A stretch of DNA of 43,035 nt from a virus (lineage: Duplodnaviria; Heunggongvirae; Uroviricota; Caudoviricetes): positions 1-43,035 of the IMG/VR virus record IMGVR_UViG_2541047789_000007. One strand, 5' to 3'. The notes under the pieces are model-generated. The model had not been told where the DNA came from. It saw nothing but the letters and a program-made list of their open reading frames with translations, and did not search any database. The translations under genes were made by a program, and so were the position numbers. Shown piece after piece: positions 17,523 through 18,389 of this stretch (the stretch's first letter is position 1; each line of letters starts with the position of its first letter).

Positions 17523-18389
17523 ATGAATCAAAATCCATTCTCATTCTATGACTTTCTTGGATATTTAATACCAGGTGGTTTTTTTATCCTATTAATGTAT
17601 TTCTGTGGTTTGACATTCGATCTAGATATTGTTATTAACTTAACTGAATTGCTCAGAGGTCAAAGTCAAATCTTTGGCATTTTGAACTACGCTTCAATAG
17701 TTATTATATCTTATATAGCTGGACATTTTATTTCTATCACGTCAGCATTTTTTATCGAAAAATATATGAATAAAGAATTAGGATATCCTTCCAAATATCT
17801 ATTTAAAAAACTGACAGATGCCACAGAAAGCATTTGTAGCCCATCATGCGATGAGAGAAGCGCTGATAAAAAAACAAAAATAAAGAATCGCATAATCAAC
17901 TGTGTATTATTTCCGATAATACTATGGGATTTTGCAACACAAAAATTATGTTATTCTCAATCTCTACCATTTCATTTAGCTAATACAACATGGTTAATAA
18001 TCAAAGAAGGTTATGAGAAAAATTTCATAACAAATCGCCAATTATTACAAGATAAAAACGGACTTGATGATGATCTCTTCAGATTGGCATATCATTATGT
18101 TTATGAGTTTTCAAAACAGCATCAAACAAAAATTCAAAACTATGTTGCATTATATGGTTTTTGCAGAAACATATGTTTAATCTTTATAATTTCATTTTGG
18201 CTATCAGTTCCAACCTTTATTTATCGATTATGTACTCATAGTGATTATCTTTATAGTTTACTTTCAATAATGCTTAGCTTTTTCTTCGTCTATGTTTTCT
18301 ATGTTGGTTTTGTTAAATTTTATAGAAGATATACTTTAGAAGTATTAATGGCATTTACTATACTTCAAAGTAATGACACTATTCGTTAA
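17523..18389 (+). CDS. AT-rich polytopic membrane protein (moron, function unknown)
   Basis: 288 aa from ATG 17523 (GGAG RBS); several hydrophobic helices; strongly AT-rich versus flanks. Confidence 0.55.
   Translation: MNQNPFSFYDFLGYLIPGGFFILLMYFCGLTFDLDIVINLTELLRGQSQIFGILNYASIVIISYIAGHFISITSAFFIEKYMNKELGYPSKYLFKKLTDATESICSPSCDERSADKKTKIKNRIINCVLFPIILWDFATQKLCYSQSLPFHLANTTWLIIKEGYEKNFITNRQLLQDKNGLDDDLFRLAYHYVYEFSKQHQTKIQNYVALYGFCRNICLIFIISFWLSVPTFIYRLCTHSDYLYSLLSIMLSFFFVYVFYVGFVKFYRRYTLEVLMAFTILQSNDTIR

Follow-up and report, generated by a model that had tools for sequence, protein, structure and literature searches.

Csx27, a membrane accessory protein of the RNA-targeting type VI-B1 CRISPR systems, lowers Cas13b interference up to 1e5-fold, and it does so in Escherichia coli even with a non-cognate Cas13b (Smargon et al. 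2017). It has been listed alongside anti-CRISPRs (PMC6538845), a 2026 review still gives it no mechanism, and no later mechanistic work turned up in our literature search. As relayed in PMC8209922 and PMC7642515, Makarova et al. 2019 (FEMS Microbiol Lett fnz088) described an "expansive" Csx27 family of proteins with four transmembrane (TM) helices, predicted to be channels for single-stranded DNA; the same sources link the wider family to competence (DprA-type), a ubiquitin-like system, WYL and DNA modification. Csx28 of type VI-B2 systems is a membrane pore with a HEPN-like domain that enhances Cas13b interference (VanderWal et al. 2023). Here, we describe a relative of Csx27 encoded by a virus of the class Caudoviricetes, namely a membrane protein of 288 amino acids (aa) whose gene precedes the excisionase and integrase genes in IMG/VR record IMGVR_UViG_2541047789_000007. 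The whole stretch that was analyzed, positions 1 to 43,035 of that record (43,035 nucleotides, nt), is referred to as the window. What is new is best described as a stand-alone, enlarged and phage-borne branch of the Csx27 superfamily. The analysis reveals a large unnamed sister family of Csx27, which is common in E. coli prophages and occupies slots used for defense cargo.

Relationship of the protein family to Csx27

The protein matched phrog_12528 over its full length (E 1.7e-169). A profile search that spanned 1.84 billion representative proteins recovered the family in 981 clusters at 50% identity with E ≤1e-3 and in 217 clusters with E ≤1e-30; the family matches among those listed were mostly 260–310 aa long. 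Of 5426 complete E. coli genomes, 205 contain the protein or one of its close variants, always annotated as hypothetical, and Salmonella, Citrobacter, Klebsiella, Enterobacter and Cronobacter have homologues with 48–92% identity. When a single genome was scanned for each species, members were recovered from Gammaproteobacteria, Betaproteobacteria, Deltaproteobacteria and many Bacteroidota as well as from Firmicutes, Chloroflexi, Acidobacteria, Gemmatimonadota and Spirochaetes. Because homologues of the same length make up the 981 clusters, and because the ratio of nonsynonymous to synonymous substitution rates (dN/dS) in pairwise comparisons of E. coli alleles was 0.16–0.23 at dS values of 0.4–0.8, the open reading frame (ORF) is a real gene under purifying selection and not a chance ORF. 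In the homologue alignment all proteins uniformly start with MxQNPFS, which identifies the ATG at position 17523 as the true start codon; a longer ORF beginning with a TTG at position 17499 was dropped for the same reason.

Pfam and NCBIfam yielded nothing consistent for the protein or for 123 of its relatives. To this extent the earlier note on this DNA, made from the sequence alone, was correct in reporting no recognizable motifs; the family has strongly conserved motifs of its own, however, and a Csx27 profile is matched. The PADLOC profile for Csx27 gave a weak match to the protein itself (E 4.3e-6) and matched 92 of the 123 family members (best E 2.2e-10). Another VI-B-associated PADLOC profile, "tm_4", also weakly matched the protein and was found in 27 members, while the other profiles were found in five members or fewer each, with a few weak matches to PDC profiles. 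A compositional artifact as the source of the Csx27 match was rejected, since none of ten reversed sequences matched anything at E ≤1.

Reference sequences of Csx27 were recovered via a degenerate pattern of the type VI-B repeat, which detected many arrays with 36-nt repeats in metagenomes. Several of these arrays were flanked by an ORF of 1100–1220 aa with two RxxxxH motifs and by an adjacent ORF for a four-TM protein of 206–259 aa, and one such four-TM protein retrieved an entry named "type VI-B CRISPR accessory protein Csx27" by NCBI. The hidden Markov model of the family matched the four-TM proteins from the Cas13b loci, and an hhalign comparison of the family with 20 Csx27 sequences yielded a probability of 96.4% (E 1.4e-9) over 189 columns, collinear across residues 4–275. 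By the measure of sequence profiles, these comparisons show the family to be a distant homologue of Csx27.

Csx27 (Smargon et al. 2017) and the family described here have the same four-TM layout and the same order of motifs. Their common core comprises FSxYDF..PG, D.F..AY.Y before the third TM helix (TM3), K..Q...Y.F.RN entering TM3 and FYR....E after TM4. In contrast to the ~200–215 aa of Csx27, the protein from the window has 288 aa, and its cytoplasmic domain between TM2 and TM3 is ~80 aa larger, although Cas13b-adjacent four-TM variants of 249–259 aa also exist. Csx27 conserves neither the invariant residues E79 and H191 of the family nor the near-invariant H68, GYPS, E195 and H200. Unlike Csx27, the protein is stand-alone and, in Enterobacteriaceae, phage-borne: neither a Cas13b-like ORF nor a CRISPR array was found near 17.5 kb in the window, and VI-B repeats were absent from all 80 family genome loci. 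As no Cas13b or array lies nearby, the cytoplasmic domain is larger and the family has its own invariant residues, the protein itself is not a Csx27. At loci L063 and L086 a crude repeat test pointed to CRISPR-like spaced repeats within 8 kb of the family gene, and these are not of the VI-B type. The four TM helices and the Csx27 homology also fit the wider Csx27-like family, which in this comparison via secondary summaries may already include the present clade; none of the competence, ubiquitin-system, WYL-HTH or DNA-modification associations was found among the immediate neighbors of 77 family loci.

The claim of the earlier note that the gene encodes a 288-aa polytopic membrane protein was borne out by the Kyte-Doolittle hydropathy profile, with four hydrophobic segments (Table 1), and by structure prediction. 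AlphaFold2 (AF2) with the family alignment gave an all-helical model with a pLDDT (predicted local distance difference test) of 91 and a pTM (predicted TM-score) of 0.89, as compared to 71 and 0.71 with a shallow alignment; aa ~101–110 were the sole low-confidence stretch. The central segment of ~130 aa contains 19 Lys and Arg residues, the C-terminal tail has four and the short loops have almost none, and from this charge distribution both termini and the central domain are predicted to be cytoplasmic.

Conservation was measured on an alignment of 123 sequences with a mean pairwise identity of ~30%. Nine positions are invariant (F6, Y14, Y64, G67, S74, E79, H191, R215 and K265) and ~30 further positions are conserved at ≥90%. 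The conserved positions form five blocks, which are an N-terminal QNPFSxYDFLGYLIPG, the TM2 block Y..GH.....S....E, GYPS, D.FR..YHY..E....H..K.QNYVALYGF.R and F.KFYRR.TLE..M. The central domain holds E79, GYPS (88-90), P131, DLFRLAYHYVYE with H191 and E195, H200, K203 and the start of NYVALYGF. TM3 is preceded and entered by NYVALYGFCRN with the invariant R215, for which Csx27 has QSMYFFLRN as a counterpart. The motif FVKFYRRYTLEVLMAF starts at the end of TM4 and contains the invariant K265 and the near-invariant F263, F266, E273 and M276; its counterpart in Csx27 is FYRxKMVERV. Judged from sequence position and not from coordinates, every block but that of TM2 is predicted to be located at the cytoplasmic membrane face or close to it. 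Specificity could reside in aa ~95–180, the variable part of the central domain, which also contains the low-confidence stretch. A fold comparison revealed no resemblance to solved structures or to predicted viral structures. Homology to a housekeeping transporter, which the earlier note had named as an outcome that would speak against its proposal, was looked for by sequence, profile and fold, and none was found.

An exchangeable cassette of temperate phages

The window matches chromosomal E. coli prophages that mix e14- and CPS-53-type genes. Upstream of the gene lie yfdP, yfdQ (DUF2303) and yfdR, and downstream follow the excisionase and integrase genes, in agreement with the position between the early-left genes and xis/int given in the earlier note. 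Its description of a strongly AT-rich block with its own ribosome-binding site (RBS) also held. The GC content of the gene is 0.28 and that of the two 500-nt segments covering it (17501–18500) is 0.30, as compared to 0.42–0.46 in the flanking segments and >0.5 in the late region of the prophage, and an RBS (GGAG, 17512–17515) is located 7 nt 5′ of the ATG.

In the lambdoid prophages of Enterobacteriaceae, a small xis-like gene and an integrase gene always come next after the gene, close to the prophage end. The identity of these downstream genes varies: phrog_2917 and an Arm-DNA-bind_2 integrase are found here, DUF4224 and another integrase in Enterobacter and Klebsiella, and further variants are a lambda-type Arm-DNA-bind_1 integrase and, at a different site in E. 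coli, a PyocinActivator-like gene. Far more E. coli genomes contain yfdR (2971 of 5426) than the gene described here (205). In four related prophages the slot is occupied by yfdS and a small gene of the size of yfdT (yfdT itself in three of them), which are translationally packed. Since yfdS/yfdT use the same slot in most related prophages, the gene is an alternative cassette in a variable slot. The earlier note had called it a moron, and the foreign composition together with the presence/absence polymorphism, with a cassette that replaces yfdS/yfdT, supports this term, whereas a promoter and a terminator of its own were not detected by scans.

Homologues in other prophages are also preceded by a gap of 108–500 nt, without sequence conservation of this gap among distant alleles. 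Positions 17395–17522 of the window, which span the end of yfdR (3′) and the entire 108-nt spacer, are 100% identical to positions 7873–8000 of locus L006, although the four-TM proteins of these two alleles are only 77% identical (dS ~0.6). This discrepancy suggests a mosaic joint at the gene's 5′ end or within it, and the pattern points either to a joint formed by recombination at this 5′ edge or to an exchange of alleles within a fixed frame.

A family member with 43–44% identity is located between gpA and gpQ of P2-like phages, beside a ParM-type partition module. The gpA-gpQ region is a defense hotspot that holds old, tin, retrons, PARIS and other systems (Rousset et al. 2022, PMC9122126). 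Table S5B of that study lists as system 3 "DUF4760", with 1102 occurrences in 18,150 loci and the description "1 TM in protein 1, 4 TM in protein 2", and protein 2 of this system (280 aa) belongs to the present family. The P2 cassette appears to have been catalogued but not tested by Rousset et al. 2022. We found the P2-type gene in 289 of the 5426 complete genomes. In the P2-like loci L143-L149 and L091 a 165-aa DUF4760 protein with one TM helix (5464–5961) always precedes the four-TM gene (6001–6843); the DUF4760 gene lies 40 nt upstream on the same strand, and the four-TM gene is followed by a strong 9-bp GC hairpin (GGCACCCUG...CAAGGGUGCC). At loci L165 and L166 DUF4760 is accompanied by a truncated four-TM gene. 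Within the sensitivity of tblastn, DUF4760 was found neither in the window nor in any lambdoid-type locus nor in 80 diverse genome loci, and no functional literature was found for this domain. System 3 and the gene of the window are thus both prophage cargo in variable slots, but system 3 is paired with DUF4760 and resides in another phage family and slot, whereas the gene of the window is unpaired.

On other viral contigs the gene lies beside genes for AIPR, PIN_8, a C5 methyltransferase or a Mu-type protease. Together with the relatives in the P2 gpA-gpQ hotspot, the AIPR and PIN_8 neighbors support the earlier note in part, in that relatives of the gene reside in accepted hotspots for phage cargo or defense. 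BLAST clustering and Pfam/PADLOC summaries detected no recurrent neighbor in 77–78 genome loci from different species. The 144 immediate neighbors of 77 loci span 153 Pfam families, the commonest of which, Phage_integrase, occurred four times; an integrase-like neighbor was present in 9 of 78 loci, and genes for type I restriction-modification (R-M) and MADS were each found twice among the immediate neighbors. At four Pseudomonas/Stutzerimonas loci (L078, L083, L066 and L065) the gene adjoins ORFs of ~440 aa and ~960–1010 aa that resemble the S and R subunits of type I R-M systems, and PADLOC recognized Specificity_I and MTase_I in two neighbors each; in these genomes the gene may travel with the R-M locus as a passenger or serve it as an accessory. 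A conserved partner gene was rejected by neighbor clustering, with the DUF4760 partner being confined to P2-type loci. The gene is without an obligate partner, accessory and horizontally moving. Its link to defense loci is clear in enterobacterial phages and weak elsewhere, and given the lone copies in Bacteroidota the case from genomic association is only moderate. Temperate phages, including lambdoid, P2-like, Mu-like and other phages, carry the gene as an exchangeable AT-rich single-gene cassette.

Possible functions at the membrane

The protein is a stand-alone four-TM protein of the inner membrane, with termini and a helical domain of ~130 aa between TM2 and TM3 that are predicted to be cytoplasmic. 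From the positions of the motifs relative to the TM helices, a cluster of the conserved aromatic, basic and His/Glu residues is predicted on the cytoplasmic side of the inner membrane, and we infer that the protein acts there. In this position it might protect the lysogen from other phages, preferably through a gated pore or a loss of membrane potential that is triggered by infection, as in abortive infection. Phage exclusion by such a pore or depolarization is, in our tentative assessment, the most likely reading, and the residence of the gene in cargo and defense hotspots of phages makes it a good candidate exclusion factor. We favor a pore over a block by superinfection exclusion (Sie), since a family conserved from phylum to phylum more likely has a universal target (membrane, ions or nucleic acid) than a phage-specific protein as its target. 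Csx28 illustrates that small Cas13b-associated membrane proteins can be infection-triggered depolarizing pores, but it is not homologous to the protein, since neither PADLOC nor fold comparison gave a match. The MotA/PomA/ExbB stators and ZorA of Zorya offer an architectural analogy only, with non-significant matches (E of at least 0.6, TM-score ~0.2); they differ from the protein, which lacks a MotB/ExbD-like partner and is not similar to them in sequence. A role in lysis or as a holin was excluded by position, the lysis genes being located at ~5.0–6.0 kb.

A number of observations weigh against exclusion by a pore. No known pore or exclusion protein was matched structurally, databases name no function and list the protein as hypothetical throughout, no phenotype of family members is on record in literature or databases, and both the domain name of the P2-type cassette and its protein sequence are absent from the complete table of evaluated systems in PMC9122126. 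A literature search by accession numbers and the PHROG identifier likewise found nothing. Only few of the 77 genome loci have an adjacent defense gene, and in four Bacteroidota genomes the gene stands alone among metabolic and housekeeping genes without any defense or mobile context. The main weakness of this reading, however, is the lack of detected expression signals. A consensus scan of the spacer (17415–17522) found no sigma-70 promoter matching at 9 or more of 12 positions, the best candidate by eye being TTTATT-N17-TATATT with 8 of 12, and a scan of the interval from the stop codon to xis, which starts 41 nt downstream of the stop codon, revealed no intrinsic terminator. Because no promoter or terminator of its own was found and because the gene is tightly packed against xis, transcription with the early-left operon is the simplest reading, next to which a weak or regulated promoter within the AT-rich spacer is still conceivable. 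A constitutive promoter at this position should read into xis/int and would thereby destabilize the prophage, so that expression of the gene may be confined to lytic growth, from the early-left operon; this objection is an argument from lambda biology and not a result. Finally, the superfamily offers a single experimental datum, namely the repression of Cas13b by Csx27, which does not execute immunity, and this datum favors a damping of immunity over exclusion.

According to such a damping model, the protein would act, like Csx27, as a brake on dormancy, membrane-effector or abortive-infection responses and would be made early for the benefit of the phage itself, which we regard as unlikely but as the best of the alternatives. 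Besides the homology to Csx27, with its repression of Cas13b and its listing among anti-CRISPRs, the genomic position fits this model, as the gene is co-oriented with the early-left operon and packed against xis/int, with no promoter or terminator detected. The early-left regions of lambdoid phages hold anti-defense genes, for example gam and ral. On the other hand, E. coli and most other hosts of the family lack Cas13b, and the 80 family loci lack VI-B repeats. Many copies of the gene are chromosomal and lie outside phages, the P2 gpA-gpQ hotspot is known mainly for defense genes expressed from the prophage, and the invariant E79 and H191 and the near-invariant H68, E195 and H200 are not kept in Csx27.

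A block at the inner membrane of the lysogen, which would stop the translocation of incoming DNA without killing the cell, appears rather improbable. P22 SieA, T4 Imm and HK97 gp15 stop incoming DNA without cell death. Lambda SieB and RexB, P22 SieA and T4 Imm are, like the protein described here, small polytopic inner-membrane phage proteins in accessory positions; RexB has four TM helices, and the gene for SieB lies in the early-left operon. A polytopic inner-membrane protein encoded by a prophage in a cargo slot, with a cluster of conserved basic and aromatic residues predicted at the cytoplasmic face, would suit a DNA-entry block, as would the channel prediction for single-stranded DNA by Makarova et al. 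2019 in the form summarized in PMC8209922 and PMC7642515. SieB, RexB, SieA and Imm are, however, taxonomically narrow, whereas the present family spans phyla. To our knowledge, Sie proteins are narrow in distribution, evolve fast and act via phage- or host-specific partners, and the near-invariant motifs shared from Proteobacteria to Bacteroidota and Firmicutes do not resemble this pattern. Pfam and PADLOC detected no similarity to SieB, RexB, SieA or Imm beyond one weak SieB match (1 of 123 members, E 0.0013), and there was none to other Sie families. The promoter problem of exclusion by a pore applies here as well.

A similarly low probability is assigned to a general membrane or envelope function without relation to phage conflict, in which the gene would serve lysogenic conversion, for example as an ion or small-molecule channel, a stress or membrane-homeostasis factor, or a lipid or envelope enzyme. 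Conversion genes often adjoin int, the lone Bacteroidota copies mentioned above have a metabolic and housekeeping context, a few neighbors are glycosyltransferases or epimerases, and H68, E79, H191, E195, H200 and E273 could form a metal-binding or catalytic site. Yet no known enzyme, transporter or channel is similar by sequence or fold, the patchy, non-syntenic distribution and the foreign composition are those of accessory mobile genes, and the gene recurs in phage hotspots with neighbors of the abortive-infection type.

That the lambdoid copy is the orphan half of a two-gene system, inactive alone or reliant on a host factor, is very unlikely: DUF4760 and the four-TM gene are fixed as a pair in 10 P2-type loci and 289 genomes and were listed as one system by Rousset et al. 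2022, but tblastn detected no DUF4760 in the window, the lambdoid-type loci or the 80 genome loci, and the solo copies are under purifying selection and conserved across phyla.

If exclusion by a pore or depolarization is true, the gene is a single-gene membrane defense system, and a function is gained for the cassette that ranks third in frequency at the P2 hotspot. If the damping of immunity is true, it is a phage-borne immune modulator of a new kind. Either way, the question of how Csx27 works, open since 2017, becomes testable in E. coli K-12 with standard phages. Beyond the single gene, we consider it possible, though doubtful, that stand-alone Csx27-like proteins are a widespread single-gene membrane module, kept by several families of temperate phages in their cargo hotspots and acting autonomously in phage-host conflict, with Csx27 being one co-opted branch; the module would then either be a membrane effector that infection triggers or restrain dormancy-type immunity in general. 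In that case, the copy in E. coli prophages would provide the first genetically tractable entry to the Csx27-type mechanism.

Downstream hairpin and neighboring genes

Table 1 Coordinates of the membrane-protein gene, its predicted protein segments and other features of the window.
Feature	Position	Strand	Remarks
cI-like S24 repressor	14115-14807		
yfdR-like HD-domain 5′-deoxynucleotidase	16860..17414	+	last conserved early-left gene before the cassette
AT-rich spacer, yfdR stop to start codon	17415..17522	+	108 nt, holds RBS
Membrane-protein coding sequence	17523..18389	+	288 aa; ATG at 17523, TAA at 18387-18389, stop included
N-terminal signature QNPFSFYDFLGYLIPG, aa 3-18	17529..17576	+	near-invariant in the family; Csx27 counterpart KFSLYDFMSFFLPG
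Predicted TM helix 1, aa ~10-30	17550..17612	+	hydropathy; AF2 helix 8-31
Predicted TM helix 2, aa ~52-77	17676..17753	+	Y64, G67, S74 invariant; H68 near-invariant
Central domain, aa 78-206	17754..18140	+	predicted cytoplasmic, 19 Lys/Arg
Predicted TM helix 3, aa ~207-237	18141..18233	+	hydropathy
Predicted TM helix 4, aa ~243-266	18249..18320	+	hydropathy; AF2
C-terminal helix, predicted cytoplasmic	18321..18386	+	bears most of motif FVKFYRRYTLEVLMAF, aa 263-278
Stem-loop tcccgt-GTGCAG-acggga	18399..18416	+	9 nt past the stop codon, 4 nt before the xis RBS
Excisionase (xis), phrog_2917	18431..18637	+	start according to a near-identical RefSeq record
Tyrosine integrase, Arm-DNA-bind_2 + Phage_integrase	18598..19764	+	domain match
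P4-type integrase	22845-24086		
IS1 transposase ORFs	24149-25225	-	
DUF3987 protein	26172-27686		
YfjJ-like protein	27951-28649		
Tmn/YobI-type NTPase, 1279 aa	29060-32899		PADLOC Tmn, E 2e-175
Type I-B retron pair: reverse transcriptase; ATPase-TOPRIM	33370-34470; 34643-36760	-	ATPase-TOPRIM, E 3e-226

The stem-loop after the gene was present in all 16 distinct sequences from lambdoid contexts, whichever xis-like gene comes next. The loop reads G/UUGCAG, each of the 16 sequences maintains pairing at the four inner positions of the stem, and compensatory changes occur there (T-A/G-C, G-C/A-T and C-G/T-A). In register 87 of 96 stem cells were paired, versus 27–51 when the partner strand was slid. 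The hairpin lacks a U-run and is hence not a canonical terminator, and it was not found upstream of xis in the four related prophages without the gene. Rfam and tRNA scans of the window gave no matches. The hairpin might serve in the processing or stability of RNA, control the gene that follows or be a boundary sequence of the module, and it may shed light on the transcription, processing or exchange of such cassettes. Like hairpins with GC-rich stems of 5–6 bp precede the RBS of yfdP (15474–15489, + strand) and of a KilA-N gene (10721–10736, − strand); by our own estimate the chance expectation for such hairpins is ~0.3.

According to PADLOC the window itself is rich in defense cargo. Positions 22845–36760 constitute a second integrative island in tandem with the prophage, which includes the Tmn/YobI-type NTPase and the retron genes; the noncoding RNA of the type I-B retron was not located, and Rfam had no match. 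Between the two integrase genes, directly after that of the prophage, lies an AT-rich pair consisting of a 594-aa AAA_15/AAA_21 ATPase (19772–21556, + strand, phrog_3940) and a D12 N6-adenine methyltransferase (21636–22535, + strand). The methyltransferase matches the PADLOC profile PD-Lambda-5_B (E 5e-124), and the two genes resemble a PD-Lambda-5 defense pair. Strain 4588 has an otherwise near-identical prophage with two other hypothetical genes at this position, which is therefore a second variable cargo slot.

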